Source of the DNA: Schmidtea polychroa
Lineage: Eukaryota
Direction: 5' to 3'
NCBI GenBank assembly: GCA_044892525.1
Contig: CM097885.1
Span: forward strand, 200,260,001 to 200,324,000
DNA: 64,000 bases
The position numbers and the translations under genes are program-made. Positions 41,101 through 63,029 of the stretch are shown here, piece by piece (the first letter of the stretch is position 1; each line of letters begins with the position of its first letter). Below the pieces are notes generated by a model. That model was not told the origin of the DNA, ran no database searches, and was given only the letters and a program-made list of their open reading frames with translations.

Positions 41101-42433
41101 CGGTCATTTATTAACTGGATGTTCCACCTACTGAGTTTCTTCACCCCTCACGACACACCCAAGAAGGCATTCATTGCTGCCACCTCCTTGCACCGTCATG
41201 AGGGACCAATCAACTCTTTTCCATTCAATCAAATCAACAATATAATAATCAAACTGAATGATAGAAAATGCATAAATAAAATTTACCCGGCGACCATATC
41301 ATTTGGATCTCCGAGTATGATGTTGCTCCTCCTACATGATCGAAACCTCATCGTCTCCTTGGTGGATCTCTAATATGACAAATATCACTCTCTACAAATA
41401 TCACATTCTCTTTTCAGCATGTTCGTGATTTCTTATGCATACCAACCTTTCCACGGTGGTGTCCTCTACTGCAGTGCAATTCCAACTCGTCCACATCATA
41501 CTGGGAGCTCTCAGATGGTACAGTCGTCGGTACCATGAAGAAAGGCAACTTTTCATTTAAATAAATTTATTATAAGAAATTGTTTTATTATATTTATAAT
41601 GATTAACTAAATTAAACTAATAACCATAAATAAAACAACTGTCGAGGCATACCTTGAGTTTCGAAAACTGAAGTTAAATCGGTTGAATTTAAAATTTTTC
41701 CCGAATGGATTTGTAGTTTGGCCTCTATATATTTCTTCCTCGGTTTGGTTTGGTAATCTCTGAACTAGTTCGCTGTAGGATAATTAAAGGTTCCGAAATC
41801 TGTCAAGTCTGTAGAAAAATTTTTTAAAAGTGGTAGTATATAACGAACCGAAGTTTACCTGTAGAAAAATTTTTTAAAAGTGGTAATCTACAGATATTTT
41901 CCGTTCCTTATATATTATTTTTCGTCCAATCAGGACACGACTTGTTTGTATTTTTACTATTTATTATTATTTTTATGTTTTTTATTATAATATATTAGAT
42001 TTTAATGACTTAACTTATTTCCTATTATTATTTTATTTATTTTCTTATTTTTATTATTTTCCTCCTATTTTTCCTGTGGATTTATTGCTACTTTATTGTA
42101 ATATAATTTTTTGTTTTAATTAGACTTAAAGATAGTTTTATTTTTTATTTATTTCTTAAATTTCTCTTTTATTTGTTGTCACTTTTTTACTTATTTTATT
42201 CTATTTCATCTGCTGGGTCCTAAATCGCTTTATTTCTAAATCTCAAGGGGTTTATTGGGTTTTATTTAGTTTGTTTTACTTATTCTTATTCTCTTATTGA
42301 TATTTTATTGTTCCTTTTTGATTTATTAGCGAGAATTTGATGGTACTTTATATTTTTATTTTATTTCGTTTATTTTTCAAGGATTACTTTTCTATTCGCT
42401 CCAGTTTTCGAAACTCCACGTTTTAGCCCAACA
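38199..42433 (-). repeat. Putative 3' LTR, 4235 bp
   Basis: Bounded by TGTTGG (38199) and CCAACA (42433). TATA-like sequence near 41730, AATAAA near 41570, 27-bp direct repeats 41809-41835 / 41859-41885. The second LTR is not in the window and the PPT is non-canonical. Confidence 0.65.
38739..39500 (-). CDS. LTR-encoded hypothetical protein (CxxC, coiled coil, Pro-rich, basic NLS-like stretch)
   Basis: 253-aa ATG-initiated ORF in GC-richer sequence; CFSC, RKRKRPTRAEKNQKRR. Confidence 0.65.
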   Translation of the reverse strand: MATSSNNAKELRPCFSCADKNADIAQLHLYIGALKKRIDLYEGTWFSPPQMKEERKKILRLEHCRDSLLEESRCQRLTIKAQSEALHKVYTEAELAKRVREFPVLDGTNVFPRHHPSPTSSGSHCQGHGSQLPPIPPPVLSCHQPKIGGPTDPIVAPILVAPIGTTNTEKPPTTRKRKRPTRAEKNQKRRDAMTALETSLSAAKSKIQEITSSHSIPSKEVFRIVPAEGIKYIVDSRLPVDIDEILADGDNFV

Positions 42434-45480: not shown

Positions 45481-46869
45481 CTACTCAGTCCTACCCTTCC
45501 CGTCTCGCCTCACCGCTATTTTCATGTATATAGTGTCGTTTCTCGTCATGTCTTCTACTTTCCGCTGTAGGATGAAATTTGGTGCTCCAGTTGCTGGTCC
45601 TTCTTCTTCCAAGGGCCTTTGGTAACATACGAGGTTTCCCGCTGTATGGAAACTCTGTTCGTGTATACTTTGATAGTTCATCATTGCGAGGTCTATTTTT
45701 GCTTTGAATGGCCATTCTATTAACTCGTCGTATGGCCCTTTGCACATCAAGAAGAATACTGAGAAATGCGTTCCGTATGCACTTCCATCCCCATTGGGGT
45801 ATGCTTTCATTTTCATTTTATACCCGTTTTTCCATGAGTAGAATGCTGGACTTAGTAATGTTGTATCCTTTCCATTTCTCGCTCTCTGCATCTTCTCTTT
45901 TACTCCCGTTATTTTCCATATGTACGGAGCCGTAGGTATTAATTCGTTGAGGTTTAATTCGCTTACTTTTTGATGTAGTTCTTTCACCATAATGTTGCTA
46001 GTTTCTACTAGATCTGTCTGTATCTTTGTACTTGTTCTCGCCTCTTCAAATGCTTCCTTTTCTTCCAATAGTTCTTTTACCAACGCTTTTAGCGAGACTA
46101 TTTCTCTTTCTAAGTTTTCGGTTTTCCTTTCGTTTTCCTGTAATACCGTTGACCATATTTCCGCGTGTGTTGATACGTTTTCTGCTAGATGTTGGGGTAA
46201 TTCCCCTCGGTGTAATTGTTTCGGACATCCCCATTTTCCTAGCACACACGTTATCTTTTTTCTTTCACACTCTTTTAGATGTTGAGCGAGTTTTATTACT
46301 CCGGGTTTATCGCATTTGTTGGGGCATTCTCCTCTGAATTCTGCGCACACTTTCTCCTCTTGTATGTTGTGATGTTGACTGATTAGTTTCTTCCAGGTGT
46401 CGTTTTCTCCGCAATACTCGCATTTCTCTAGTCTTTCTTCGCATCGACTTTGATGTTCTGCTTCTTCATTGACTTTAATCTCTTCTTGGCAACGTTTGCA
46501 TTGACTGATTTTATACTCACATTGCTCCATATGTTGCCTCACTTCCCATATCACTCCTCGCCAATTACATGGGGTGTTTTTACATCCTAGGTTTGCATTC
46601 AACATATCTTTTACAGCTGCTTTATCTTCGTTTGTATCTCCCAAACTTGTTATCATTGTTTCTTTGCATACTGGGCACCATTGTGGTCCCTTCTTTATTA
46701 TCTCCTCTACACATTCTCTGCACATTCTGCATCCACATCTGGTTTGGTGAGGTTCTCTTAATAAGCTCTTGCATATTCCACACGTTACATGGTTGTGTAT
46801 TCGAATTGTGGTGGACTTTCTGATTTGTTCAACAATTTCTCTGAATTCTTCTCGTTGTCGCTTATCCAT
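45481..46869 (-). CDS. TRAF: TNF receptor-associated factor homolog (RING - TRAF zinc fingers - coiled coil - MATH), intronless, inside the retroelement
   Basis: CGIC...CGCRMCREC...CPVC RING; CKNTPCNW...HMEQC and CEYC zinc fingers; MATH YIWKI...SPAFYS...GYKM...YPNGDGSAYGTHFSVFF...GPYDELIEWPF. Confidence 0.93.
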   Translation of the reverse strand: MDKRQREEFREIVEQIRKSTTIRIHNHVTCGICKSLLREPHQTRCGCRMCRECVEEIIKKGPQWCPVCKETMITSLGDTNEDKAAVKDMLNANLGCKNTPCNWRGVIWEVRQHMEQCEYKISQCKRCQEEIKVNEEAEHQSRCEERLEKCEYCGENDTWKKLISQHHNIQEEKVCAEFRGECPNKCDKPGVIKLAQHLKECERKKITCVLGKWGCPKQLHRGELPQHLAENVSTHAEIWSTVLQENERKTENLEREIVSLKALVKELLEEKEAFEEARTSTKIQTDLVETSNIMVKELHQKVSELNLNELIPTAPYIWKITGVKEKMQRARNGKDTTLLSPAFYSWKNGYKMKMKAYPNGDGSAYGTHFSVFFLMCKGPYDELIEWPFKAKIDLAMMNYQSIHEQSFHTAGNLVCYQRPLEEEGPATGAPNFILQRKVEDMTRNDTIYMKIAVRRDGKGRTE

Positions 46870-46958
46870 TTCTATAATTATATGTATACATATATTCGTT
46901 ACTGGTACAGTTTCGTATTTTTATTTACATTTATTTACATTGCTATTTTAGGTTATAT

Positions 46959-47486: not shown

Positions 47487-50400
47487 CTATATACGTGAGC
47501 TTGGAGGGCGCTGAGCATTCCAGGCCTCCACCCACTGTTCCTGCTTGATATTACTTGGTCGTTTTACACGATGTTGAAAATTTCTTATTCTGGCCATTTC
47601 TAGTTCTCCGTGATGCCGTCTATCTTTGATTATTTTTATTGTCCCCCCCGTTATGATTAAAAAGGCCCCTGTTATTATTATGCCGCTGATCCACATCATC
47701 TGTTTTATGCTTATAATTTCCGCTTTTTCCTTGCTCGTTATTGTTGATATTGCTTCTGTGCTTTTTAGATTACCGTCTTTGCCATTTCCTTTCATCATTC
47801 CTCGTATTCTTGCTATTTCCTCGTTCATACCTTCCTTTGCCATTTTTTGTATTTTCTCCATCTCCTCCTCGGATACATAATTGTCTTGATGTTTCTCACT
47901 GTTTTTCTTGCGTTTTCCTTGCTCATCTTTTTCATCATCGATTTTTCTTTTCTTCCCTCTTTTCCCAGGGTATCGTCGACATTCTCTCGCTGTATCTTTT
48001 CTCCAGATGCATATTGTGTATTCTTTTGGAGGTTGTTGCTGTATTACATATTGTAGACAGTCTTCACCCGGTCTTAATCTTGCGATGCAGACTTTGTGTT
48101 CTTTTCTTGGCTGGAGTTGCGTTATCACTACCTCACCTCCTTTTCCCAGGTGTACCTCCTTCCCTTTGACTTTCGTTATTCTCTTTCCTTCTCGATTTCG
48201 GTATGCTTCTTGTATTCTTACTTCCGTTATTGGTTCTGCATCTTCATTTTTTAACACTAGTCTCTGATAAGCTCTAGACATACATCTTCCTAATATACAC
48301 CTTTCTTTTAAATCCCATTCTTCTTTTAGATCCCATTGCTGCTCTTGTACTTGTTTTTTCTTTTCTTGTTTTAGTTCTTCCTCTTTGTTGTCCTTATTTT
48401 CCGTTTCTTTGGCTTCTTTTATCGTTCTCATTCCTCCCTGGGCTGTTATCATTTCCACCATTGTTAGTACGAGTATCATTATCATCATATTTGTCTCCAT
48501 TTCTTTGTTGGTAAAAAGTAGGCATACCCTCTGTTTTCCACTATTCGTCTTTTCTTCTTGCTTCATTCGGTTTCTCGGGTTATTTTCCTCTTTTTTCCTA
48601 CTCGCGTCGTTATTTTCTTGATTATTCTCCTCTGATTTCTCTTTCTCTTTATTCCCGTTTCGACCTTTTTCATTATTATCGTCGTCTTTATCGTCTTTAT
48701 CGTCTTTATCTCCCCCGCTATCGTTTAAAATGTCGTCCTCGACATTTATATCATTCAACAATCTGCGGTATGCCGTTAGCACTCTGTTTCTTGCTAATTT
48801 TGCTTCGAGTTCGAACTCCTTTCTGCCTGTTGCTACATGTCTCTTTCTATTCCATTCTTTCACTAATTCTCTTAATTGTATCCGACGATGTTTCCCGATT
48901 CGCTTTTGTTCGTTTAGATTCTGCGTGAATTTGAGATCTTCCCTGTTTAATACGATCATTATGATTTTCGGAGTTCCTCCTTTTGTTAGTGTATTTTTAA
49001 CCATAGCATTTTCTCCGTTTTCGTAGAACTCATTTATATTTATTGCATATTTATTGCTTTGTGGTATTCTCCATGTTAGCAGCAACTTCATGGCTTCTAA
49101 GTTCATCCGTATCGTGTTCCATTGGAACTGTGACGTGTTTTTACAGATATTTTCTACCTCAGTTCTTGTAGCATTTTTACAAATGAATCTAATCATTTCC
49201 AAGTTTGGTTGTATTGTTGCCCAATCCATGGCAGAATTTCCTTCGTTTGATATTTCGTCAAGTCTTGATCCCGATCGATGTAGTATATGTAATGTTTTCG
49301 GGTGTATATTTGTTATGGCTGCATACATCATTGCTGTTTCTCCTTGTTCATTTTTTGCATTAGATTCTTCTCCGAAGTCTCTAAGGATTCTTATGATGGT
49401 TATTGCTCTGTTTTCTTTTGCTGCTAAAATGGCTTGTTGTAATGGTGTTCTTGAGTCTTTTGTTGGTAAGGTGAATGCTAGTGGTATAAATGTTTTTATT
49501 TTTCCTATGTCTAGATTTGTGGTCTGATCTCTTGCGTAGGTGTGTACTGTTTTGGTTATTTTTGCTAGTATCGCTTCATCGGATAGATCTTGCATTTCTT
49601 CAAAGAATACTTCTTTAGCCTTACGTACTACTATCTCTTGGTCGGAGTTTATTGTCTTTGGTTTACTTGTTGTTGCTATATCGGTTATTGGTTGATCGAC
49701 TTGTTCCTCAGACTCTCTTGCTTTTACTTTCTTCCTTTTTATCTTTTTCTTGTTCGAATTGTTAATGCGTTCCTCTGCCGTTAGAACTTGAATAATGCTT
49801 AGGTAAGTTTCTCGAATGTTGTTCATATTTTCCATCATATATAATACACTCACGGTTTCCCAAAATTTTACTTGTACTTTATCGGTAAATTGAGATATAG
49901 CTTTTTCGAAGTTGATAATTCGTTTTCTGATTAGTTGTTCGTCTTTGTGATTTGAGAACTTTATGCCACGTTGTAGTAGTTGATTTGGAATTTCGAATAG
50001 GTGATGTCCTCTCATCGCTTCTCTCATCAAGGTATTTTCTCCTTTGGTAAATGTTTCGTTTATATCTACCATATAATCGTTTTTGATCGGGTTCCTCCAT
50101 GCAATTAGTATTCCAGTAATTGTTATTAATTTCTCTTTGATTGCAGTTAATAGCCCGTCATACATGTTTCCTATCTCTCTATTATCCTCATATGATAATA
50201 GATCTACTAAGATTATGAAGGCTTCCGTACTTTTCCCTTCGATTGCATGATGTAGTGCATTTTTCTGGTTGTGGTCTTGTGTGGTTATCTTTGACCCAGT
50301 TTCAAGTAATGCGATGATAATATCTTTAGCTTTATCCCGATTGGCTGCTATCATTAGTGGAGTGTAACCTTGGTTGTTTTCTTGATCTGTCGAAATGTTA

Positions 50401-51566
50401 CAATCGCGAAATGCTTCAATTGTTTCTAATATCTGTTCGTTACTACCCACCTTTAAAAGCTTGTGCAGGGGTGTGTCTCCGTAATGGTCTGTGATCGTGA
50501 ATAATATAGGCCATTGACTTTTAACTACCCTGAGCAATGGGTGTGTTCTTTCTCGGTTTGCATAATTTTCGATCATTGTTAGCAGACCTCCCAATATCTC
50601 AAAATCTAATCTGTCTTCTGCCCATCCGGGCATTTTAACTTTTACTTCCTTTATGATTTTCTCGGCTTCTGATGGTTGTAACCCTAATCGATTACCTGTT
50701 GGTTCGTTTATTTGCTGTAACATGTTTATTCTATACGTTTGTGATCTTGTCGTTAGTGTACGTCCTTCTGGCTGACTGGTGGCGGTTTTCGGAATTGGCT
50801 TACATCGTGCAACATTTACGTATATTGGTCTTGTAAAAGGGTTGTTCACTAATCGTACTCTTACATTAGTTTCTCCGACGAATAGAATCTCATACGGCCC
50901 TTTACCGTTTCGTTGTAATTTTTTGGTGGTTCCTGGAATTAATTCTGGTGTTTCAATCATCACCCAATCGCCTGTTTGAAACGTATGCTGTTTGACGTTT
51001 TTCTTTCTATCATGTAACTCTTTGTAACTTTCTTGATAAAATTTTATATTCAATCCTGCGGTTTCCCAGATTTCCTGCATTCTTTCCTTGAACTTGGTTA
51101 CATAATCGTCTATTTCCATGTATTGTGATATCGGTGGCTGATATTCTAAATCCATTGGCATATTGCATTCTCTGCCGTACATCAACTTGAACGGACTCAT
51201 CTTTGTGGACGCGTGAATCGACATTCTGTAAGCCATTAGACATAATTTTATATATTCATCCCAGTCTCGTTGATGACGATCGACATAATTTGATAACATT
51301 TGAATCAGTGTTCCATTGAATCTTTCTGTCATACCATTAGTTTGTGGATGGTACGGTGATGTTCTTAATTTTGCGATCTTGAAGTAGTTGGTGACTTCGC
51401 TCATTATTTCGCTCATGAAATTCGTTCCTTGATCCGTCAGTATTTGTTTCGGCGTTCCATATCGACAACATATTTCCTCTACTAATATTTTTGCGATTGT
51501 TCTTGCTTTCTGATCTGCCATTGCGAATGCTTCGGGGAATTTTGTCAAATAATCTGTGATTACCAA
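47487..51566 (-). CDS. Polyprotein C-terminal part: integrase core, two ankyrin-repeat modules, signal/TM-anchored protein
   Basis: ITDYLTKF, LTDQGTNF, TERFNGTL (DDE); KGPYEI; GDTPLH, GYTPLMIAA, GETAMMYAA ankyrins; MMIMILVLTMV and WISGIIITGAFLIITGG hydrophobic segments. Confidence 0.93.
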   Translation of the reverse strand: MVITDYLTKFPEAFAMADQKARTIAKILVEEICCRYGTPKQILTDQGTNFMSEIMSEVTNYFKIAKLRTSPYHPQTNGMTERFNGTLIQMLSNYVDRHQRDWDEYIKLCLMAYRMSIHASTKMSPFKLMYGRECNMPMDLEYQPPISQYMEIDDYVTKFKERMQEIWETAGLNIKFYQESYKELHDRKKNVKQHTFQTGDWVMIETPELIPGTTKKLQRNGKGPYEILFVGETNVRVRLVNNPFTRPIYVNVARCKPIPKTATSQPEGRTLTTRSQTYRINMLQQINEPTGNRLGLQPSEAEKIIKEVKVKMPGWAEDRLDFEILGGLLTMIENYANRERTHPLLRVVKSQWPILFTITDHYGDTPLHKLLKVGSNEQILETIEAFRDCNISTDQENNQGYTPLMIAANRDKAKDIIIALLETGSKITTQDHNQKNALHHAIEGKSTEAFIILVDLLSYEDNREIGNMYDGLLTAIKEKLITITGILIAWRNPIKNDYMVDINETFTKGENTLMREAMRGHHLFEIPNQLLQRGIKFSNHKDEQLIRKRIINFEKAISQFTDKVQVKFWETVSVLYMMENMNNIRETYLSIIQVLTAEERINNSNKKKIKRKKVKARESEEQVDQPITDIATTSKPKTINSDQEIVVRKAKEVFFEEMQDLSDEAILAKITKTVHTYARDQTTNLDIGKIKTFIPLAFTLPTKDSRTPLQQAILAAKENRAITIIRILRDFGEESNAKNEQGETAMMYAAITNIHPKTLHILHRSGSRLDEISNEGNSAMDWATIQPNLEMIRFICKNATRTEVENICKNTSQFQWNTIRMNLEAMKLLLTWRIPQSNKYAININEFYENGENAMVKNTLTKGGTPKIIMIVLNREDLKFTQNLNEQKRIGKHRRIQLRELVKEWNRKRHVATGRKEFELEAKLARNRVLTAYRRLLNDINVEDDILNDSGGDKDDKDDKDDDNNEKGRNGNKEKEKSEENNQENNDASRKKEENNPRNRMKQEEKTNSGKQRVCLLFTNKEMETNMMIMILVLTMVEMITAQGGMRTIKEAKETENKDNKEEELKQEKKKQVQEQQWDLKEEWDLKERCILGRCMSRAYQRLVLKNEDAEPITEVRIQEAYRNREGKRITKVKGKEVHLGKGGEVVITQLQPRKEHKVCIARLRPGEDCLQYVIQQQPPKEYTICIWRKDTARECRRYPGKRGKKRKIDDEKDEQGKRKKNSEKHQDNYVSEEEMEKIQKMAKEGMNEEIARIRGMMKGNGKDGNLKSTEAISTITSKEKAEIISIKQMMWISGIIITGAFLIITGGTIKIIKDRRHHGELEMARIRNFQHRVKRPSNIKQEQWVEAWNAQRPPSSRI

Positions 51567-54500
51567 TATATATATATATTTCCTCTATCTGATTCTGGTA
51601 GTGGACCGACTACGTCCATTGATATCATTGTCATTGGTTCTGCTGGTACTGGCATTGGCTTTAATGGTGCCTTCCATTTTGTTCCCGTGTTTTTTCTGGT
51701 TGCGCAAGTTATGCAATTTTTCACCCATTCCGTTACATCCTCGGTCAATGTAGGCCAAAAATATTTTTGTTTCATTCGTGCCAACGTCTTTTTAGATGAC
51801 ATATGTCCTCCGAGTCTTCCGTCATGGTATTGTGTTAGTAGATCTTTACGTCTATTCTCGGGAATGCACATTAGTCTTTTCTCGCCATCCATTATCAATA
51901 ACCAATCTTTCTCGATAATATATCGATGTCGATGTTTATCCATATGCTCCTTCAATTTTTGATCTTTCTCATATACCTCTGCTTTCCCTGTTTTCACATA
52001 TTCAATGATTTGCTTCAACTCTGTATCCTCTTGTTGGTCTTTCCGTAATTGGCAAAAATCTAAATCTTCTGCTACCATCAGACATATTCGTTGCATTTCG
52101 TGATCTACTAAATCTGGAAAGATAAATCTGGACATACAATCCGCATTGGCATTCGCTCTTCCCGCTTTGAATTTTATGAACGGTGAATATTCTTGTAACT
52201 GCATTGCCCATCGCATCAATCTACTTGAAGCTTCTTTGTGTTGACCAAGCCATACTAATGGTTGATGATCCGTGGTGATACATATTTCGTGTCCCCATAA
52301 CAAATATCGAAAATGTTTAATTGCTTGTATGATTGCTAACGCTTCTCTCTCGGTTACGGAATAGTTTTTCTCGTGCTTTTTAAACGTTCTACTGTAGTAT
52401 CCAATCACTCTTTCTTTTCCTTCTTCATCCAGTTGTCCTAATATTGCTCCGGCTGCATATCCACTTGCATCTGTTGCTAATAGGAACGGTTTCTTGAAAT
52501 CAGGATGTACTAGTATTGGGGCTTCAATTAATTTATCTCGCAATGTCTCAAACGCTTTTTGTTGTTCTGCACCCCAAATAAATGAAATATCCTTTTTCAC
52601 TAATTCCTGTATTGGTTTCGCAATACCTGCATAGTTTTTGATGAATTTTCGATAATATCCGCATAATCCGAGAAATTCTTGAACTTGGGTGACAGTTTTT
52701 GGTGCTGGACATGTTTTTATTTTTTCTATGTTTCTTGGATCTGGTTCTTTGCCTTTTGCTGACACTATGTGTCCTAAGAACGTAACCTTTTCTTTTGCCC
52801 AATCACATTTGGATGGTTTAAGTTTCAGTTTCCATTGTCGTAATCGAACGAACACGTTTCTGATATCTTCCAAATGTTGTTCGAAAGTTGCTGAATATAT
52901 TAATAAATCATCAATATATACCATACACTGCTTGATCCCGTGTGTGACAAAATTCATACATCTCTGGAATGATGCTGGGGCATTGGTCAGTCCGAACGGC
53001 ATTTTCCTGAATTGGTATAGATCTCGGCCCAATGTGAATGCTGTTTTCTCTTTGTCTTCCTCCTTGACTTTGATCTGCCAATATCCACTTTTCAGATCTA
53101 AAGATGTAAAATATGCGGCCCCCTGTAACATAAGTAACATCTCATTGATGTCTGGTAAAGGGTATGTGTCTCTTTTTGTTACTGCATTTAATTTCCGATA
53201 ATCGATACAGAATCTCTGAGTACCGTCTTTTTTCTTCACCATGACTACTGGAAATTGCCATGGCGAACAACTTGGTTCGATCACTTGTGCATCTAGCATT
53301 TTTTGTACTTCTGCTTCGGCTATCTCTTTTTGCTTCTCTGCTAGTTTGTATGGACGTAGTGCGATTGGAGTTTCGTCTATTAATGGTATTGCGTGTAGTG
53401 TAACATCGCATGCTCCCAAATCTAAATCCGAAATTGCGAATATATCTTTATATTCTATCAATAATTGTTGAAGTCTCTCCTTTTCTTTTTCCGTTAGCAA
53501 GGTGCTATCAATTATCCATAATTCGTCCGCTTTCGTTGTTTCGTTGGTGATTTTTGGTAATTCGATGTCTATCATGGGTGTCAATCTACCCAATCTTTCA
53601 TTTTCATATATGATCTTGTCTTCTTCCTCGAAATTTGTGATGTTAATTGGTATTTCCCCGTCTTCATTTATTGTTATTATTTCTCTTGCTAATGGTAATT
53701 CTCGTCGTTTTTCGAATGATTTGCTTGGCTCAAAAATGACTTCTCCTTCCATTCCTGCATCCACTTTTATTTGACATATCATCTGTGATTTTGCGGGTAC
53801 AATTATTTTCTCCGGACATCTAATTATTGCGTTCATCTTGCATATTCTACCCATTTTGTCTTTTAGACACATTGTTGTTAAATCGATTACTACTTCCTTA
53901 AACAATTCCGGCATTAAATCCGTTCCGATTATACATGGTTCACTCAGTTTGGGTATCACCGCTAGATACGTTTCAATTTCGTTATCCTGATATCGTAACG
54001 TAGTCCACCATCTTCCTACTACGTCTACGGTTTCTTTACTGCATGCAATAATATGGATAGTTGTTTGTTCGATATCTTTCCAACATTTACTGGGTATTTG
54101 GTTTATTGCTATTGCTGATACGTTTGCTCCGGTATCTATCATTGCGCTTGTCTCTTTCCCGTTGATTTGGATCATGACTGTTACTGCCGCACCTCCTGGT
54201 GAACTCATCACTGCTATCGTTCTTACGTCGTCCGCTTGGTCTACACTTTTCGTTCTTCGGGTCGGCATATAGTTCATCCCTGGTTGACTTGGTAACTGTG
54301 GATACCTATTTTGTGTCATGGTCAAAGCTGTTTGTTGTCCAACGATATCTGGTGGTATATAACTTCCGTTGGCTATCCAGGTATTTGTTTTTTCTTTCTC
54401 CCAATATGGTGCTGTTTCTATTGGCTTTTCATTCGGGTTTCTACTTGGATATGGGTATTTGTCATTCCCGTTGTCGTCATCATCACTATCGCTGCTGTTT

Positions 54501-57500
54501 GATCGATTCCTAAATCTGTCTAAGAATTTTGGTTTGTTCTTTTTCAGTTGCGTCCTTGTTGCTTCATCATACATTGTTTTCCGAAATCGTCTACCGACTT
54601 CCTCGTCAGTTCCTTTTATTTTTGTCAGTATTTTGATCAATCGTTTTATTCTATGTATGTCTTTAGAATGACCGTGCAACACCATTGTTTTTGCCAAAAA
54701 TGGTAGAAAGCCTACTATCAATTTCCAATTTACCTTCTTTTCTCTCTTATAGATATCAAAACACGCTAACATTTGAGTCAATATTACTCTAACTATCTGG
54801 ATAATAAGAATGATTCCCAATATTCCTGCCATCATTTGACCGAACACTAGAAATCTTCCCCACATTGCTTTCATCATGTTTGACGTGGCTTGTTGAAAAT
54901 GATCAGGTGACAATAATAGTTCGTAATTGGGGCCTGACTGGAAATTCGTTCCCCCAGTTATGGTAACCATATTCGATAGAATGGATTCCCGTCTTGCTGG
55001 GAATAATACGTTTAATCGTGCCGTTTCTAAATCCTCTGGTGAGTACATACCTGTTTTTGACACATCAATTGGTTTGAAATCTTGTTCTGTTGCGAGTTCT
55101 ATTAGTCCAAACTTTTTAGGCTCTTGTACTTCGGTTTTTACTGGTAACATTATCCATTTCCCATCGGGTTTTTCATATAACGGTCCGTATGCATTTGAAC
55201 AGTTAAAGGTGTTCGGATAAAATCCAATTGGGTTCATGATTCGAGTGACGGGTTGAACGAATCTGTTTCGCCCTTTGTAACTAATTTCCAACTCGTTTGC
55301 GCATTTCCCTGGTGGAATTGTGGGCTTTCTTGGCAGTCGCGCAAATGTCTTGGTACATGCATATGTATACATTACCTCTCCCACCATTCTACCAAAATGT
55401 CCATCCGGTAACGGGAGTGATGGCATTGTGTTATCTGGGTGTGTTATTGCGATGGCTAATTTTGTTTTTAGTATCTCTTTATTCAATGAACAGTCATTTT
55501 GTATAAGATCGTAATACACTTTTTGCATTGTCGTTTGTCCTCGGTGGAACAAGAAGTCCATCTTATTATTGGCATACAGGTACAATTTTACGTCCTCCGT
55601 TGCTACCTTTCCCACTGCTCGGTCTATTACTTGCCTTGACATGTAGATACCTGCGTAGTTCGTCCGGTATACTATACTGTCACATTTGGTGGTCTCTTTT
55701 TCTCTAATGAATCTCATGCCGATGTCTGGATCATCGGTAATTAATGCCGTTGGTGTTTTTTGGGTTGTGAGTCTCTTTTCTTTGGGGGATGGCGGAACTG
55801 GTTTCCCATTTCGCATCCTTACGTTTCCATTCTCTTCATCGTCATCCTCGTTTTCGTAAATTTCTCCTTTTACTTCATTGAATAGAGCACTTTTTAACAA
55901 TTGGAGTCGGCATTTTTGGGTGTTAGCTTCATATATTATAGTCGAAATCCCCGTTCTACACACGTTTTCCGTAGCTCTGCATGCTGGGTTGGTTTTCATT
56001 TGATAGTTGTTTGCGTCGAATTGTGCTTCGTATTCCTTCAACTCCACTGTGTAGGACTCAATTACTACTACTCCTGATATCACCTCTCCTCTGATCGTAT
56101 ATGTGCCTCCGTTACATGATCCATCCGTTGATTTTACTCGTCCGGCTACATAGATACTTTCCGTCTTGATCATTCCGCTTTGTCCGTGTATTGTTACTCC
56201 ATCCCTGATTCTCATCGCTCCGGTTCTAAAAAGCTCTTTACAGTCTTCCCGTTGTATAGGTACTATTTCTTTATCTAATCCAGGTAATATGAGGGTTGAA
56301 TATGAGTATTGTCCACAGTAATATGCCAACACTTTCTTCGATACTACGCATTCTCTAGCTTGCGTTCTAATGAAATCTGATTCTTGGTATACGTGATAGG
56401 AGACTTTCTTTTTTACTATATCTAATTTATTCGGAGACGCCTGTCTACATTCCTCTATATCTCTCAGGGAGTATCTTTCTCCTATTATCGAATTGTCACA
56501 GTCGTAAATAGTAAATCCCGCGGCTCCACTGGTGCAGAGCATCCATATCATCATGGTCATCATTAGTGAATTAATCGACGCTTTTCTGCTGGCTGGGTCT
56601 TTCAATGGCAATTCCCATTCTAGCTTGTTTAGTAATTTCTTCAACCGAATTTGCATTGATCTCTCTTGCTCGTTTTTTCGTGGCGCTTGTATGAGTCTTT
56701 TCCACCCACCGGCGCGGATAATATGTGGTTCGATTGTATTTTCGATGATTGTAACGGTCATTTCTACATGATTTGCGAATTGTTTGTTAGGTATTTTCCT
56801 CGCTGCTAATCCCATCAAATTGTACATTAGATACGTTAATACTACTAAATGATGTTCGTCGTCGTTTGCGTTTAAAGTTAATTGTTCAATTACTCTTCTT
56901 GTCTCTTCCCAATCGGTTTTAGTGGTTTTTGTCTTCTCTTTGATTAATTTCGGAATTATTCCGGATATTGTATTCCATAGTTGTCTGGCGTCTACGCTTG
57001 CTACTTTTCGTTGCCATAACCGTCGCAATTGTGGGTTCGTTATTATTAGCATATCTTTTACTAGCTCTCGTATCCATTTTTCGCCTCTTTCGATAGTTGG
57101 CTGGGCCTCTTTTAGATCCCACACTATTTTATCCAGTTTCTCTAATCTGACTTGTCCTTGTTCTTGTTTCAGTTGTTCTCTAGTTTTAAATTCCGGTTTT
57201 TCTCCTTGCTTCTTGGGTCTCCCTTTTGCCCGTTTTTCCATCATTGTTCCGGCTTCCCTTGTATTTTCATAATTCGGGTTTCTCTCGTTATCCGTTCTTG
57301 GCAATGAGCTATCGTTGTTTCTCAGCCATTCGTTCCATTCGTCTATTATTTTGTCCGTTTGACCTTCTGGTGTTGCTTTCGTTGGTCCTTTCTGTCGTTG
57401 GAATTGTTCGTCGGTTTCGGTTTCTGTTGTATTATCGATAATCTCCTCGATACTCAGCTTATTTGGCTGCTGATAGCTAGTTGACGGTTGGCTTGTTGTC

Positions 57501-60500
57501 CATATTTCGGCTCCTGTCGGCCATCTTACCAGAATTGGTGATCTTTCTCCAGCTCCTTCATCGCTGTCTTCCAATATAATTTCCTCGATTTCCTCGGTTT
57601 CATTCGTTTTACTTGCCACTTTGTTAGGGCTTGGTGTACTCAAGCTACCTTTCGTAGGTTTACTGGATTTGCTCTTCCTTTTAATCGGTTTTCCCAATGT
57701 TTCTGCCATTGTCAATACATTGATCTCCCCCAATCTCATGGGTGTTATTCCGACATCTGCATTATCATCCAACGATTTTCCGAATAGTTGTAGGTGAAAT
57801 GGAGTTTCGTATGCTAATTTCTTTTTTAACTCTCTGATCTTTGTTGTTGGATGTACTTCTGTATCCTCAATGCTTTTGTCGGGATACTTGACTCGGATAC
57901 GATACCTTTCCTGGGTATCTTGTGCCCATTCTTGGTTTCTCCATTTCCTAATAATTTGTTCTAGCTGTTCTGGGTACCATTCGTTATATTGTCTGTATTC
58001 CTCAATCGCTTTCGCCATTTCTCTTAGATTGTGGATATTCTCTGATGTCTTTAGGATGATGTTAGCCAATGCTATTACTTGACGTTTTTGATTTTTTGTT
58101 CCCGTTGCTAAGATATCACCTAATTGTTTATATCTTTCCTTCTCTTCTCGTTCTCGAGCTTCCATCGCTTCTTCGCTGTCCATATCGGCATATTCGCGTT
58201 CTTTCTTTCTCATCGCATGAATATGTCTGGTTTCCGTTTCACTTTCTGATGTAACATCCGTTTCGCTTTCGTCGTCCGATGTCGATTCTATTTCGTCCTC
58301 TTCGTATTTTGGAGGTTCATCTTCCTCTTCTTCTGATTCGCTTTCTATCTCACCAATGTCTGTTTCCACGAAAATCCCTTTCCTGATTTCCCATTCTTTG
58401 TTTTCCGCATTCCACGTCCTTTCCCATGGGGTTCGTCTGCAGGATCTAACACTTAGTTTCTTTATTTTTCCTTGAAGCTCTTTTTCTTTTAGCCACTGTT
58501 GATGAATTTCAATTATCTCTACTGATTTTTGATATAGCGTTTTCATCCTGTCTCGTATTTCTTTCTGGTATGTTATATCTCTTGTTCGGAATTCGTCCAT
58601 GGGCAATATTCTGATGATTTGATGATTATCCCACATTCCCATTTCGCTTAGCGAGGTGTCGTCTTCGGCCCGTAATATTATTTTATCGTACATCATGACT
58701 ACGTCATCTATCATCCCGTCGCTACTCTCGCTTCGTACTTTTTCCGTTATCTCTTGGTTTATCTTGGTTACTAAGTCATCCACCGTACTCTGATTACTCA
58801 TCTTTATTCGTCGTTTCTCCTCGTTTGGTAACCATATGGTTATTTCTAATTTCTGCGGTTGCGTTTCTTTCAACCTTCCATATTTGTGGATCAAATTTAT
58901 GGTTCTCCAATCGCTCATCCTGAGCAATTCTGTATCTCGTAATCGGCTCATTAGTTCATGCATGTCTGGAGTTCGTCTTGCTATGAGTAAATCCCAGTTA
59001 TCTTCGACTTGTTCTTGAATTTGTTTGATTAATTTATCTAGATTTCGTCGCAAGGTGCATTGTTTTATTTGTTCCAGCTTCAGCTTGATGTTAAAATCAT
59101 ACTCGGCCTTGGCGTCTTTAGCCCATTCGTGAATATTTGCTGGTTGCTTCTCTTTATACAATTTCAATATTTGAGTTTCTCCTGGCCAGATCAATGCATC
59201 TATTAGGTGCATGTCTGGCTTAATTTGTTCTCCTTGATATTGATATAAATACTCTTTCTTTCTCGAGCTGCCCAAATGTTCTCTTATCCAATCAAAAAGC
59301 TCGTCTGTGACTGCATTTTTTATCCATATTCTCTCGAGTCCTTTACTCGTTCCGATTTTTATTACATAGCGTGTTGTCTCCGCTTGTTTCATTTTTTCCA
59401 TATACTTCTTTATTATCGCTTTTTCCTCGTTTGGTATTAGATCTTTTTCGTTTCTTTCTAGTTTCATTATCTTTTGTAAGAAGCGTTTATATGGTATAAG
59501 GTCGATGAACTCCTGGTTTCTTACTACCACTGGAAGTATTTCCTTTACTTGTTTTATCGCTTCTTCTCTTTCTTTTCTCAATTTCATTTCGATATTCTCG
59601 TCTTCGCTTTCGCTTGTCACGTCGCTTTCTCTTTCATCCTCATCTGCTCCGATCTTTTCTCTTAGTTGGTCGATATTTTCATTTAACTGTAACATTTCTC
59701 CACCAAGGCTACTCACATAATCCTCATCGTCATCTGTTGACAACACCTTCTTTGTTGTCCTCATCATATTAATTCGTAAATTTTTCATTCTTGGTACTTT
59801 CTTTAACTTTTTGTTCTCGAGTATCGTTAGCTCCTCTGAGTCTAATTCTCGTATCATATTATGCTTTAGATGATTAATCTGTTTTCCATTTTCGTTATTT
59901 TCTGCTTCTGCTTCTGTTTTTGTTTGCTCATTTTCTCTTTCGATTTTATCTTTTATCTTTTTCCAAAATATTTTCTGAATTCTCTGATTTCCTTTTAGCG
60001 GTGTTGTTGAATTTTCCTTTTTTGCTGCTGGAATTGTTTCTTTCGGTTTCTCTGGTTCGCTCATAGGTACAACTCTTGGATTTTTACCGTAATTGTAACA
60101 ATATTGCTCCTTTATCTCCTTTACCATCCTCATCATATTTATTCGTAGTGGTTGTTCTTGTCGCTGCTGAATTCGCTCTCTTTTTATCCTTTCTTCTTCA
60201 GCTTGTAGTCTTTGCCATTCTTGTGCATGTTGTTGCACTTCATAATTGTTAAGATTCTCGGTGCTTCTCATCATGCGTATATTCTGGGTTTGTTGTGGTA
60301 CTTGCTCTTGTCTCGGTCTCATCATTTGTTGCATCATCTGCTTCATTTGTGAAATTTCTTGCATCACATTCATTTGCTTTCCCTCACTAGGATTACTTTG
60401 TCGTTGCGGATTTGGTGCATAGTTATTATTTCGCTGTGGTGGTCGTTGCTGTTGGCTCCTTTCTCGACAGTCTCTTGAGATATGACCTGGTTGCCCGCAG

Positions 60501-61924
60501 TTAAAACATCCTCTCGATTGGCATATATTTTCCGTGTGTCCTCGTCGTCCACACCTATTGCAATTTGCGTTTCGGTAACAATCTCTATCCCAATGTCCTG
60601 GTTTACCGCATGTTCGGCATTGTTTGTTATCGTTCATATTTCGTCGATTATTAAAGTTGTTCCCATTGTTCGAGTTGTTGCGTTCACTGTTATTCCCGTT
60701 TGATCGTCCTTGTGGTGGTTTGAAAATTTGATGCGCACCTGGTATAAACTGATTCATCTTTGGTTCATGATTATTGTTATCTCCATTTTCCGTTTTCACC
60801 GCTGCTGTTGCGATTCTTCCTTCCTCTTGCATGACATTCATTTGTGCCGGGAGGTGTAGTTCGCATCTTGTGGCCCAATCTATAGCTTCCTCTAGTGTTT
60901 TACACATTTGACATCCCACCGAGGCCCTTACCTCTTCTCGGCGTAGTCCTTCTATGAAGTACCCAATTAAGTTTTCCTCCGGCAAGTTTCCGTTCATGGC
61001 CTTCTTTGCCAATCTTCGCAATTCACTTGCGTATAACGTAATTGACTCGTTTGCTCTTTGTTTTCTACTTGCCAGTTCACCTAACGCTTGATTTATCGGT
61101 TTGCTGGCTCCGAATGTTTTTCTCAAAAATGTTTTGATGTTTTCCCAATTGTCTAATTTCGTATTTCTTTCTTTTGCTTCCAGATACACTTCGAGTGCGC
61201 TATCGCACAAAAACAGAGGCATTCGTTTACTAATTGCTTCGGATGTCCATCCACACACATCGATATAGACTTCAAAATTGGTTATGAACGTTGCCAACTT
61301 GTTCGCATTCCCGTTGAACGGTTCGCCTCTAAATTTTTCTTTATATTCGTCGGTTTTTGCTACATTCATCTTGATTGGTTCTTGAAATGCTAAAATTTCT
61401 TTTAAATTTTCTAATGATGTAGCTAAATTATGGACGGATAATTCTTCTGTTGACCCGGTTAGGTTGTTTGTTATATCGGATAGACTTTCTCTACTTCTAG
61501 ATCGACTGGGCGTATGTCCGGCTGTGGGGTTTTCTTGATCGTATATCGGTGTTTTGTGGGGTCTTTTTGCTCCTTGTGATATTCCTCTCTGCTGCCTAAA
61601 TGATCGTCCTCTTTTGAGTTGATCTAATTCGTCTCCTGAAAATAATACGTCTCCTGGCTTACTTGAAGATCTAAGGTTGGGTTTATCCGTGATTTTCCTT
61701 TTACTCTTTTCTGTCTTTTCACGTGGATTTTCTACGGTTAGCGTCTGCTGAATTGGTCGAGTTCGGTTTTGATATTGTCTTCCTTTGTGCGGGTTCTGAA
61801 TTGCTTTTCCTGGGTTGTTTGTATATTCTCTGGATTCCTCTTGAGCTGGTTCTGAATTGACTTGGTTGGATTGATGTCTACAATGAAAATATGATATCGT
61901 GTTGCCTTTGCTTACACGAATCAA
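51560..61924 (-). CDS. Polyprotein N-terminal part: Gag, UBL x3, Bcl-2-like, envelope glycoprotein, PR, RT, RNase H, IN zinc finger
   Basis: Three CCHC knuckles; DTG protease (about 54130); YIDD RT (about 52915); DASG RNase H; H..RLGGH...CITC. Joined to 47487..51566 by a +2 slip in an (AT)n tract. First in-frame ATG at 61369. Confidence 0.95.
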   Translation of the reverse strand: MIRVSKGNTISYFHCRHQSNQVNSEPAQEESREYTNNPGKAIQNPHKGRQYQNRTRPIQQTLTVENPREKTEKSKRKITDKPNLRSSSKPGDVLFSGDELDQLKRGRSFRQQRGISQGAKRPHKTPIYDQENPTAGHTPSRSRSRESLSDITNNLTGSTEELSVHNLATSLENLKEILAFQEPIKMNVAKTDEYKEKFRGEPFNGNANKLATFITNFEVYIDVCGWTSEAISKRMPLFLCDSALEVYLEAKERNTKLDNWENIKTFLRKTFGASKPINQALGELASRKQRANESITLYASELRRLAKKAMNGNLPEENLIGYFIEGLRREEVRASVGCQMCKTLEEAIDWATRCELHLPAQMNVMQEEGRIATAAVKTENGDNNNHEPKMNQFIPGAHQIFKPPQGRSNGNNSERNNSNNGNNFNNRRNMNDNKQCRTCGKPGHWDRDCYRNANCNRCGRRGHTENICQSRGCFNCGQPGHISRDCRERSQQQRPPQRNNNYAPNPQRQSNPSEGKQMNVMQEISQMKQMMQQMMRPRQEQVPQQTQNIRMMRSTENLNNYEVQQHAQEWQRLQAEEERIKRERIQQRQEQPLRINMMRMVKEIKEQYCYNYGKNPRVVPMSEPEKPKETIPAAKKENSTTPLKGNQRIQKIFWKKIKDKIERENEQTKTEAEAENNENGKQINHLKHNMIRELDSEELTILENKKLKKVPRMKNLRINMMRTTKKVLSTDDDEDYVSSLGGEMLQLNENIDQLREKIGADEDERESDVTSESEDENIEMKLRKEREEAIKQVKEILPVVVRNQEFIDLIPYKRFLQKIMKLERNEKDLIPNEEKAIIKKYMEKMKQAETTRYVIKIGTSKGLERIWIKNAVTDELFDWIREHLGSSRKKEYLYQYQGEQIKPDMHLIDALIWPGETQILKLYKEKQPANIHEWAKDAKAEYDFNIKLKLEQIKQCTLRRNLDKLIKQIQEQVEDNWDLLIARRTPDMHELMSRLRDTELLRMSDWRTINLIHKYGRLKETQPQKLEITIWLPNEEKRRIKMSNQSTVDDLVTKINQEITEKVRSESSDGMIDDVVMMYDKIILRAEDDTSLSEMGMWDNHQIIRILPMDEFRTRDITYQKEIRDRMKTLYQKSVEIIEIHQQWLKEKELQGKIKKLSVRSCRRTPWERTWNAENKEWEIRKGIFVETDIGEIESESEEEEDEPPKYEEDEIESTSDDESETDVTSESETETRHIHAMRKKEREYADMDSEEAMEAREREEKERYKQLGDILATGTKNQKRQVIALANIILKTSENIHNLREMAKAIEEYRQYNEWYPEQLEQIIRKWRNQEWAQDTQERYRIRVKYPDKSIEDTEVHPTTKIRELKKKLAYETPFHLQLFGKSLDDNADVGITPMRLGEINVLTMAETLGKPIKRKSKSSKPTKGSLSTPSPNKVASKTNETEEIEEIILEDSDEGAGERSPILVRWPTGAEIWTTSQPSTSYQQPNKLSIEEIIDNTTETETDEQFQRQKGPTKATPEGQTDKIIDEWNEWLRNNDSSLPRTDNERNPNYENTREAGTMMEKRAKGRPKKQGEKPEFKTREQLKQEQGQVRLEKLDKIVWDLKEAQPTIERGEKWIRELVKDMLIITNPQLRRLWQRKVASVDARQLWNTISGIIPKLIKEKTKTTKTDWEETRRVIEQLTLNANDDEHHLVVLTYLMYNLMGLAARKIPNKQFANHVEMTVTIIENTIEPHIIRAGGWKRLIQAPRKNEQERSMQIRLKKLLNKLEWELPLKDPASRKASINSLMMTMMIWMLCTSGAAGFTIYDCDNSIIGERYSLRDIEECRQASPNKLDIVKKKVSYHVYQESDFIRTQARECVVSKKVLAYYCGQYSYSTLILPGLDKEIVPIQREDCKELFRTGAMRIRDGVTIHGQSGMIKTESIYVAGRVKSTDGSCNGGTYTIRGEVISGVVVIESYTVELKEYEAQFDANNYQMKTNPACRATENVCRTGISTIIYEANTQKCRLQLLKSALFNEVKGEIYENEDDDEENGNVRMRNGKPVPPSPKEKRLTTQKTPTALITDDPDIGMRFIREKETTKCDSIVYRTNYAGIYMSRQVIDRAVGKVATEDVKLYLYANNKMDFLFHRGQTTMQKVYYDLIQNDCSLNKEILKTKLAIAITHPDNTMPSLPLPDGHFGRMVGEVMYTYACTKTFARLPRKPTIPPGKCANELEISYKGRNRFVQPVTRIMNPIGFYPNTFNCSNAYGPLYEKPDGKWIMLPVKTEVQEPKKFGLIELATEQDFKPIDVSKTGMYSPEDLETARLNVLFPARRESILSNMVTITGGTNFQSGPNYELLLSPDHFQQATSNMMKAMWGRFLVFGQMMAGILGIILIIQIVRVILTQMLACFDIYKREKKVNWKLIVGFLPFLAKTMVLHGHSKDIHRIKRLIKILTKIKGTDEEVGRRFRKTMYDEATRTQLKKNKPKFLDRFRNRSNSSDSDDDDNGNDKYPYPSRNPNEKPIETAPYWEKEKTNTWIANGSYIPPDIVGQQTALTMTQNRYPQLPSQPGMNYMPTRRTKSVDQADDVRTIAVMSSPGGAAVTVMIQINGKETSAMIDTGANVSAIAINQIPSKCWKDIEQTTIHIIACSKETVDVVGRWWTTLRYQDNEIETYLAVIPKLSEPCIIGTDLMPELFKEVVIDLTTMCLKDKMGRICKMNAIIRCPEKIIVPAKSQMICQIKVDAGMEGEVIFEPSKSFEKRRELPLAREIITINEDGEIPINITNFEEEDKIIYENERLGRLTPMIDIELPKITNETTKADELWIIDSTLLTEKEKERLQQLLIEYKDIFAISDLDLGACDVTLHAIPLIDETPIALRPYKLAEKQKEIAEAEVQKMLDAQVIEPSCSPWQFPVVMVKKKDGTQRFCIDYRKLNAVTKRDTYPLPDINEMLLMLQGAAYFTSLDLKSGYWQIKVKEEDKEKTAFTLGRDLYQFRKMPFGLTNAPASFQRCMNFVTHGIKQCMVYIDDLLIYSATFEQHLEDIRNVFVRLRQWKLKLKPSKCDWAKEKVTFLGHIVSAKGKEPDPRNIEKIKTCPAPKTVTQVQEFLGLCGYYRKFIKNYAGIAKPIQELVKKDISFIWGAEQQKAFETLRDKLIEAPILVHPDFKKPFLLATDASGYAAGAILGQLDEEGKERVIGYYSRTFKKHEKNYSVTEREALAIIQAIKHFRYLLWGHEICITTDHQPLVWLGQHKEASSRLMRWAMQLQEYSPFIKFKAGRANANADCMSRFIFPDLVDHEMQRICLMVAEDLDFCQLRKDQQEDTELKQIIEYVKTGKAEVYEKDQKLKEHMDKHRHRYIIEKDWLLIMDGEKRLMCIPENRRKDLLTQYHDGRLGGHMSSKKTLARMKQKYFWPTLTEDVTEWVKNCITCATRKNTGTKWKAPLKPMPVPAEPMTMISMDVVGPLPESDRGNIYIYW
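54690..56576 (-). other. Envelope glycoprotein domain, chuvirus-G / herpes gB-like class III type
   Basis: Internal signal peptide ...WMLCTSGAAG|FTIYDC; Cys pattern ECVVSKKVLAYYCG.YS; CSLNKEIL...GEVMYTYAC...C.NEL.I.Y...FVQP.TRI; TM WGRFLVFGQMMAGILGIILIIQIV. Confidence 0.8.
56690..57090 (-). other. Bcl-2-like domain within the polyprotein
   Basis: BH2-like IEPHIIRAGGWKRLI preceded by a helical bundle with a W-containing BH1-like region; no NWGR motif. Confidence 0.6.
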
Positions 61925-62591
61925 TCATTCCTTTTTGCCACATTCAAGCACAGACACCGTTTTAGGGCCTCTGTTATACTTCTCTTCATTTCCCCTCATA
62001 CACTTCTTCGCGGAATATAATTACCCATCAACCCATATTTTTCGTCGATTTTAAATTATCTATTTGGGGTAGTAACAATTATCTATATAGTCGTATAAAT
62101 TATCTATAGTTAGCATTTATAATATCGATAGGTCGTTGTCAGTTACTGCTTATTACCTCCCATATTTTCTTAATCCTTTTACGCGGTTCCGCTATTTTAC
62201 TTAATCTTTCATCTCTGTTTCCCCTTATTTGGTTCTACTCTGTAACCAAAACAAAATTCGTTTAACCGGTTTAAACCAAAAAAAATTCTGTAGAACTTTG
62301 TCTACTTATCTGGGATCCCTTTTAATTAATTAATCACCTTCCTCTTTTACTCATCACTTATTCTTTATTTTCATTATCTCTTTAATTCATTTTCCTTTTC
62401 AGTTTCTCTTTCTCACTGAAAAAAAAATTTCATTATTACCTCCCACGAGCTCGTTTAATCCTTTCTAAATTCAAATACCATATTTCAAACTCACTTTGCT
62501 TCTAGCTAGCTTTAATATTCCATCTCACTAGTAATTTAAATGTTATCAACTTGTAGCTTGAATGCTATCTCACTATTACTTTAGGCCTTTA

Positions 62592-63029
62592 CGACTGGCT
62601 GGCACTTTTCAACAGCTCAATCTTCTTCTCCTGACCGGTTGGACTATTCAACAACTCGATCTTACGACTGGCTGGCACCATTCAACAGCTCAATCTTCTT
62701 CATCTCCGAACTGGCTGGACTTTTCACAGCTCAGTTTTAATTTTTCCTGACCGGCTGGACTTTTCAACAGCTCGGCCTTAATATCTCCGACTGGCTGGAC
62801 TTTTCACAGCTCAGTTTTAATTTTTCCTGACCGGCTGGACTTTTCAACAGCTCGGCCTTAATATCTCCGACTGGCTGGGCTTTTCACAGCTCAGTTTTAA
62901 TTTTTCCTGACCGGCTGGACTTTTCAACAGCTCGGCCTTAATATCTCCGACTGGCTGGACTTTTCACAGCTCAGTTTCAATTTCCCTGACCGGCTGGACT
63001 TTTCAACAGCTCGGCCTTAATGTCTCTAA
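62592..63029. repeat. Tandem array of ~40-bp monomers organised as 80-bp dimers, in the internal leader upstream of gag
   Basis: Four near-perfect 80-bp units 62711-63029 plus three diverged monomers 62592-62710. Confidence 0.95.

Follow-up and report, generated by a model that had tools for sequence, protein, structure and literature searches.

Predicted Ty1-like protease sites at conserved junctions of a giant Burro-type retrotransposon polyprotein in Schmidtea polychroa

The layout of the Burro retrotransposon has been published as an element of ~30 kb whose first open reading frame (ORF1) encodes near 4,800-4,900 amino acids, with a Gag carrying CCHC knuckles, a ubiquitin-like (Ubl) and a Bcl-2-like domain, env in frame between gag and pol, the order protease (PR) - dUTPase-like - reverse transcriptase (RT) - RNase H (RH) - integrase (IN), ankyrins and accessory ORFs (PMC6431247). 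The Burro section of that review gives no cleavage sites or processing map. RNA expression of Burro1 is treated in the relevant part of PMC8532177, where no processing data are found, and Burro1 function is cited in PMC13465017. In the literature searched no cleavage map of Burro was found, and the original Burro reports or their supplements may still describe processing. Here a Burro-type Ty3/gypsy element was analyzed in a stretch of 64,000 nucleotides of Schmidtea polychroa (assembly GCA_044892525.1, contig CM097885.1, positions 200,260,001 to 200,324,000), which is called the window and whose first letter is position 1. A first-pass annotation of this stretch had listed 14 short motifs at the domain junctions of the element's polyprotein and read them as a protease cleavage code. 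About nine of these motifs are conserved in a diverged sister family and probably mark where the element's own aspartic protease cuts, so that what is added to the known layout is a predicted Ty1-like processing code within a known giant element.

Self-cleavage of retroelement polyproteins is textbook knowledge, and to our knowledge few protease specificities have been measured for retrotransposons with long terminal repeats (LTRs). The measured sites of the Ty1 protease are VPTIN/NVHTS, IHLIA/AVKAV and TARAH/NVSTS, with the slash marking the cut (PMC6952103, Table 1). Compared with that table, the likeness lies in hydrophobic P2 and P2' residues and a small or polar P1 (IN/NV, IA/AV and AH/NV versus IN-MM, IA-VM and IH-AM here), and the difference in that Ty1 has three measured sites in copia order, whereas here about nine sites are predicted, Met-rich at P1'/P2' and lying also around cargo blocks. 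Retroviral proteases cut type 1 (aromatic/Pro) and type 2 (hydrophobic/hydrophobic) sites and accept Asn or Cys at P2, according to the account of site types in PMC3185560. A self-encoded aspartic protease is common to both systems and P2 Asn or Cys would fit a cut one residue later than in Ty1, but the type 1 signature (aromatic P1, Pro P1') is present in 0/14 motifs. The same account reports that foamy viruses cut Pol at RT/IN only and leave PR on RT, which is a precedent for the ambiguous C-terminal site of PR described below. GAG-ENV-POL errantiviruses of the HSV/gB type are described in Platyhelminthes (PMC13524379). They resemble the window element in a gB/chuvirus-type Env between gag and pol with a signal peptide and a transmembrane segment on its sides, and differ in that the cleavage and protease text of that source covers furin sites and ORF layout, not PR junction motifs.

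All of the Burro (GYPSM1) layout features named above are common to the window element. Its polyprotein lies on the minus strand, as do all polyprotein features given below, and is read in two frames. Frame A (51560..61924; 3,454 codons; codon 186, at position 61369, is the first Met) has the domain order capsid (CA) - nucleocapsid (NC) - spacers - UBL1/UBL2 - helical/UBL3/Bcl-2-like - Env - PR - dUTPase-like - RT - RH - IN N-part, where UBL stands for ubiquitin-like. Frame B (47487..51584; 1,365 codons) continues with the IN core and C-part, two ankyrin blocks, a signal-like segment and a membrane protein. The two frames overlap within the integrase, and the window copy therefore carries a frame change that the first-pass annotation had not mentioned; open frames of 4,700-4,817 codons are found in many copies of the family, in line with a giant ORF1 of about 4,800-5,100 amino acids. 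The Burro-type order Gag - Ubl - Bcl-2 - Env - PR - dUTPase-like - RT - RH - IN - ankyrin is present, as are the PR-RT-RH-IN order and Ty3-type RT of Ty3/gypsy (Metaviridae) elements, and the best solved relative of Pol is Ty3 Gag-Pol (E 4e-103). Burro1 carries MATH in the ORF1 frame together with a BIR-bearing ORF. In the window family MATH/TRAF sits in a separate downstream ORF and no BIR was found by Pfam in the nine window ORFs scanned, whereas the sister family B1 of the same genome (L030/L031) has both the in-frame MATH and the BIR ORF. Judged by these features, the window element has the Burro layout but is not Burro1 itself. The window family is 77% identical to B1 in Pol, 55% in UBL3-Bcl-2-Env-PR-RT and 35% in Gag/cargo.

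All 14 hexamers of the first-pass annotation were found on the minus strand, 12 in frame A and two in frame B, and every quoted coordinate fell inside its 18-nt motif. At about nine junctions the consensus is Ile/Met/Val - Asn/Cys/His/Ala - x - Met/Leu/Ile. Conservation across families, which had been proposed as a check, was found at aligned positions in B1 for 9/14; by this comparison four motifs are classed as ambiguous (KHNMIR, SINSLM, KMNAII and RVCLLF) and EINVLT is rejected. Conservation in B1 thus supports nine of the listed sites; EINVLT fails as a boundary because it lies inside a UBL fold.

The conserved sites run along the polyprotein as follows, with the B1 hexamer and the aligned 4-mers (window/B1) in brackets. 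In Gag, QMNVMQ is found at the CA/NC junction (60827..60844; QVAAMT, MNVM/VAAM) and again past the zinc knuckles (60359..60376; QINLMQ, MNVM/INLM), and NIRMMR (60266..60283; RINMMQ, IRMM/INMM) and RINMMR (60128..60145; RINMMR, INMM/INMM) lie in Gag spacers. A second RINMMR (59759..59776; KINMLR, INMM/INML) stands at the start of the UBL1/UBL2 block, and HIHAMR (58208..58225; RICMMR, IHAM/ICMM, right behind the in-frame MATH of B1) separates this block from the UBL3/Bcl-2 block. In Pol, TIAVMS (54203..54220; TIAVLQ, IAVM/IAVL) marks the PR N-terminus, RICLMV (52073..52090; RICLII, ICLM/ICLI) the RH/IN junction, and RINMLQ (50715..50732; RIFMLR, INML/IFML) the IN/ankyrin junction; the last two read RICLIV and RMNMMQ in a subfamily. 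The sequence around these words has diverged much further, as flank identity with B1 is 17-38% at eight of the nine sites and 62% at RH/IN. Over all 14 sites, motif identity is 28/56 and flank identity 166/498.

Some of these positions agree with predicted domain edges. By Pfam borders RICLMV (in the RH/IN linker), RINMLQ (behind IN) and the two QMNVMQ copies (flanking the zinc knuckles) lie between domains, and TIAVMS is in a low-confidence stretch of the structure model, ahead of the first protease-fold strand. HIHAMR lies inside an AlphaFold-predicted helix (residues 2-19) at the N-terminal end of the model, in a block with pLDDT 61. The solved Ty3 RT chain stops just past its RNase H, the same junction as RICLMV, and we take this chain end to be a natural Ty3 cut. 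The Ty1-like pattern of hydrophobic P2/P2' and small or polar P1 fits the nine sites, with exceptions at the second position, namely Arg in NIRMMR and Phe in B1 RIFMLR. In distant Burro-like proteins, similar hydrophobic-small-x-hydrophobic words were seen by eye ahead of PR, behind RH and ahead of most duplicated PR copies.

Cleavage by the element's own protease is likely because of the placement around PR, RH and IN, the conservation in the diverged B1 and the likeness to the Ty1 sites IN/NV, IA/AV and AH/NV. The protease present in cis (53840..54211) is retroviral-like by Pfam and fold search, with an intact DTG and a fold of the Ddi1-like type. The earlier proposal that this enzyme cuts at the motif is the best reading for about nine predicted sites and does not extend to EINVLT, a structural strand.

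Held-out predictions relate the Pol sites to those in Gag and cargo. With a profile built from the window's four Pol junctions, the six Gag/cargo sites of B1 took ranks 1-6 of 1,810, and with the four Pol hexamers of the first-pass annotation ranks 1, 2, 3, 4, 5 and 8 of 1,810; six such scores were reached by 16 and 6 shuffles per 1,000, respectively, with the register of the Pol sites picked when the motif was already known. When a profile of all ten B1 sites was used, nine of the sites in frame A of the window came within the best 12 of 3,264, and 0/1,000 shuffles had eight positions at the rank-8 score. In the reverse direction, B1 Pol sites ranked the two RINMMR copies and NIRMMR of the window 1-3 of 1,620. 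These results bear on a narrower explanation, in which cleavage is confined to the motifs at three or four Pol junctions, while the Gag/cargo copies are relics of a local duplication or short structural or binding elements, such as helix caps and beta strands, retained for other reasons. The two RINMMR copies are 81% identical across 32 nt, the fold can produce the same word (EINVLT), HIHAMR is placed within a predicted helix, and the excess of identity over background is marginal, all of which would suit relics or structural words. However, the six Gag/cargo sites survive in B1 between flanks that are 17-38% identical, and a profile of Pol sites alone predicts them. NC, around which Gag polyproteins are normally cut, lies between two of these sites. 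We therefore regard a restriction of cleavage to Pol as improbable and prefer self-cleavage at about nine sites.

Over-representation was also measured against shuffled sequence. The core pattern occurs 12 times in the window against 2.6 expected, and the strict form 4 times against 0.1 (0/1,000 shuffles each), a circular test since the pattern was fitted to the same window. In the held-out B1 polyprotein (4,687 residues) the core pattern was found 11 times against 5.1 expected (p about 0.012) and the strict form I[NC][ML][ML] 5 times against 0.26 (p about 0.002).

Several results weigh against self-cleavage at all these sites. The motif was originally defined on this very sequence. Three more distant env-carrying families of the same genome, all shorter, show no enrichment of the core pattern, with 3 occurrences against 4.2 expected in X, 2 against 4.0 in Y and 5 against 3.8 in Z; over-representation against shuffled sequence, a control that the first-pass annotation had proposed, is thus seen in the window, where it is circular, and in B1, but not in these three. 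Patterns derived a priori from Ty1 are at best slightly enriched: the window family has 18 against 14.5 (p 0.20) and 19 against 11.3 (p 0.024), and B1 has 21 against 15.0 (p 0.068) and 18 against 11.0 (p 0.036). When 164 de-duplicated junction windows (of 284) of database Ty3/gypsy proteins were submitted to an unsupervised Gibbs search, it missed the motif and converged instead on residues directly past ADxLSR. In favour of the sites, between residues 340 and 1795 B1 fits the core pattern at 7/8 of the originally listed sites (KHNMIR was filtered out and also has no match in B1) versus 0/92 other hydrophobic-x-x-hydrophobic 4-mers with poorly conserved flanks, a contrast that is favoured because most background 4-mers miss the pattern in the window too. 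Plain identity at the listed sites is only marginally above matched background (p 0.061; BLOSUM p 0.046). The shuffles reaching six high scores rise to 50/1,000 when the IN C-terminal site is left out of the profile and to 115/1,000 when the PR C-terminal site is left out as well, and the reverse test ranks the window's QMNVMQ pair only 26-27 and HIHAMR 19 of 1,620. EINVLT, which belongs to a folded strand, nevertheless reaches rank 6 of 3,264, and a cut therefore cannot be predicted from the motif by itself. No site was found between the dUTPase-like domain and RT, and the candidate ICKM at the PR C-terminus may, by the Ddi1 alignment, be the last protease strand instead of a site.

Across the 30 listed sites the codons vary synonymously (Ile ATA/ATT/ATC, Asn AAT/AAC, Cys TGT/TGC), and therefore the constraint acts on the protein. 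This is relevant to the idea that translation starts internally and in frame at the Met-rich words, on sub-genomic or spliced RNAs, and yields the same N-termini with no need for proteolysis, which would account for the presence of at least one Met in every conserved non-Pol site in all three families compared. However, B1 TIAVLQ, B1 RICLII and the subfamily RICLIV are without Met, and the amino acids upstream of the Met are conserved despite synonymous codon change, which leaves internal initiation very unlikely. A host enzyme that cuts or binds the motif in place of the element's PR, such as one of the Ddi1 type or another cytosolic protease, is similarly hard to credit. The modelled fold of the element PR is Ddi1-like, and a host enzyme could thus share its specificity. 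But the motif flanks PR and IN, where, according to the site table for Ty1, that element's own protease acts (PMC6952103), and the junction words differ among families of one genome, which family-specific proteases would fit better.

That variation was observed in X, Y and Z (L011/L012, L014-L018 and L038-L043), whose junction words are different and often have an aromatic second residue (NYSM, SYAL, IFAA, IFMV, VFAL and CYGL). In X and Y the aromatic words stand at the PR N-terminus and the RH/IN junction (NYSM, IFAA, SYAL and IFMV). For Y, a profile of its own family ranks eye-picked Gag sites 2, 9 and 22, versus 204, 463 and 62 with the window profile (of 927); for X the own-family profile is better than that of the window for 3/4 eye-picked Gag sites, and Z is mixed. 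The aromatic words of X and Y hint at family-specific protease specificity, as far as sites picked by eye can indicate.

Comparison with more distant material was limited. An alignment search with Gag/spacer returned just two zinc-knuckle matches, and the 25 matches that HMMER returned for the cargo alignment covered Bcl-2/Env only, so no further planarian species could be compared for the sites. None of 86 candidate viral contigs was confirmed (0/86), metagenome contigs yielded 4 loci, and a search of sequencing runs listed no RNA run with the sequence.

The remaining five motifs differ from the conserved ones in several ways. EINVLT (57710..57727; subfamily ETNVLT, B1 IVNRLT) forms the last beta strand of UBL3. 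It overlaps strand 174-180 of the UBL3 model, aligns with the C-terminal part of ubiquitin and is changed in relatives, and was ruled out as a boundary. KHNMIR (59849..59866; subfamily NHRMLQ) has rank 46 of 3,264 and no counterpart in B1. At the PR C-terminus, RICKMNAII (53822..53848) holds two overlapping candidates, ICKM and MNAI. B1 has lost the originally listed MNAI (MRTE) but retains the overlapping ICKM in the form ICTM. ICKM is also the point up to which the alignment with Ddi1 extends; the structure model has low confidence there, and several distant relatives have no such word at this junction. RVCLLF (48513..48530), placed before the last membrane protein's signal-like segment, reads RVCLPF in the subfamily (83-93% identical) and LHSI in the ungapped register of B1. 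SINSLM (56561..56578; B1 GMNAII) begins the hydrophobic signal/anchor segment ahead of Env.

Among further candidates, DMHLID (residue 904) was ruled out as a site since it is inside UBL1, and TINLIH (residue 1008) since it is not kept in B1. A search for conserved hydrophobic-x-x-hydrophobic islands without motif bias was too permissive, with 142 matches in frame A. Identities as SUMO-interacting, RHIM or IAP-binding motifs were considered and dropped because the residues do not fit.

The start of Env fits another enzyme. The hydrophobic signal/anchor segment (56498..56572) has a (-3,-1) signal-peptidase-type end three residues ahead of Env's conserved YDC. By a simple rule, small residues stand at -3/-1 behind this segment in 27/29 sequences (the window and 28 relatives), a count in which one member (Z) is probably in the wrong register. 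Hydrophobic segments were found ahead of Env by alignment, at the C-end of Env, and, by a scan, ahead of and within the last protein. From these features, host signal peptidase would release both Env and the last membrane protein at their N-terminal ends. The segment between the Bcl-2-like domain and Env could be Bcl-2 tail anchor and Env signal peptide at once.

Within the predicted sites the bond cut is placed after the second residue (IN/MM, IA/VM, IH/AM) with some preference over one residue later, because the Ty1 sites VPTIN/NVHTS, IHLIA/AVKAV and TARAH/NVSTS have this register. The retroviral type 2 register, one residue later, is possible, but at several sites it would make Val, Ile or Lys the P1 residue. 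These residues are disfavoured at P1.

A processing model can be drawn from these sites. The precursor would be a multi-pass membrane protein threaded through the membrane, host signal peptidase would free Env and the last membrane protein, and the element protease would cut two cytosolic stretches, by which Gag and Pol leave their membrane anchors. The predicted Gag products are CA of about 178 amino acids, NC of about 156 and spacers of 31, 46 and 123. Predicted cargo products are a UBL1/2 block of 517 amino acids and a helical-UBL3-Bcl-2 block of about 550-570, which perhaps keeps a membrane anchor. Further predicted products are Env with its tail, PR (free or joined to dUTPase-like-RT), RT-RH, IN and the ankyrin block. 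In flavivirus-type precursors, which are membrane-threaded, signal peptidase cuts on the luminal side and the viral protease on the cytosolic side; the virus and the protease class are unrelated, and this comparison serves as a working analogy only. More tentatively, the 4,800-residue membrane-threaded precursor may undergo such a two-enzyme, flavivirus-like maturation, with family-specific junction words (Ile-Asn/Cys-Met-Met for the proteases here and in Burro1, a word with an aromatic second residue for those of X and Y) and with fixed slots for host domains and extra protease copies, a scheme that we consider possible rather than probable. If such slots are real, they could take up UBL, MATH, Bcl-2, ankyrin or an extra PR, which would still come free of the replication enzymes. 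The predicted sites yield a concrete map of how one of the largest retrotransposon polyproteins known would be processed and name mature units relevant to effects on host apoptosis and ubiquitin pathways, and several families with about nine sites each would be a natural series for protease/site co-evolution.

It had been proposed that the motif brackets the UBL, Bcl-2, Env and ankyrin blocks, that each cargo domain is freed as a separate protein, and that this explains stepwise capture of cargo. Some blocks are indeed flanked, but the borders UBL1/UBL2, UBL3/Bcl-2 and dUTPase-like/RT have no motif, nor has the border between the ankyrin blocks, and the cargo would therefore leave as multi-domain blocks. 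The structural EINVLT also speaks against single-domain release, as do the starts of Env and of the last membrane protein, which fit signal peptidase. As for capture, the ankyrin duplication and the UBL repeats came without a new site, and the MATH of B1 sits before a site already present in the window family. What speaks for all 14 sites with motif-flanked cassettes is that B1 MATH has ICMM behind and IAAV in front (3/3 B1 copies), and that extra PR copies in distant relatives, which would fit cassette duplication, mostly come with a motif-like word upstream. Yet IAAV is a weak candidate (rank 22-38 of 1,810), and the Env start agrees with signal peptidase in nearly all relatives. Taken with the junctions that have no site, this makes the full original version the least credible of the explanations considered. 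A gain of cargo inside segments whose ends already bear sites is the better reading.

Extra protease copies were noted in the Burro-like polyproteins P0035, P0121, P0122, P0123, P0046, P0134, P0047 and P0067. Six of these proteins have three D(T/S)G domains; RT is included in five of the six, and there two of the domains precede it and the third follows IN. P0047 has two D(T/S)G domains after RT and P0067 one. The words ahead of most extra copies are ICSL, IGMM, ICMM, IAML and VSMV.

The other parts of the element are as follows. The 3' LTR (38199..42433 (-), 4,235 bp) is 99.95% identical to the 5' LTR, which lies 549-4,783 bases past the window end, and the whole element spans ~30.6 kb. It is a young element of Burro-type Ty3/gypsy. 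It belongs to a family with many copies in the genome, as all 150 scored PR matches, among 2,258 candidates, were 93-100% identical. On the window ORFs Pfam found Retrotrans_gag, zf-CCHC, Monjiviricetes_fusion, RVP, RVT_1, RNase H, integrase and ankyrins. The Env ectodomain (54746..56515) matches Monjiviricetes_fusion with E 6.6e-72, the best stretch being residues 2054-2393. Structure models and fold searches gave a ubiquitin fold for UBL3 and a retroviral protease of Ddi1-like type followed by a dUTPase-like fold. The UBL1 and UBL2 labels come from weak matches to ubiquitin-type folds and resemblance to UBL3; the Bcl-2 domain has a weak Pfam match (E 0.027), and a comparison of this region with PDB sequences gave no relevant match.

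An accessory TRAF-like ORF with RING, zinc fingers and MATH by Pfam (45481..46920 (-)) lies outside the polyprotein in the window family. The placement of MATH differs in L031, where a MATH-like domain is in frame at residues ~1180-1330, before a conserved site. A 43-nt direct repeat (79%), at 43306-43348 and 46917-46959, stands at the 5' edge of two accessory frames and may be a shared splice or leader signal. Both LTRs contain a 253-codon ORF without Pfam match (window 38742-39500, L025 1092-1850). Between the 5' LTR and the polyprotein, 80-nt tandem repeats occupy 62589-63026 in the leader, and a RING-finger frame (63610-63999; Pfam zf-C3HC4_3, E 3.8e-08) upstream of gag is open at the window end. 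At the other end of the window, an ORF cluster on both strands covers 1-4703; its ORF 1201-1983 (+) has a P-loop and may resemble a Polinton/Maverick-type packaging ATPase.

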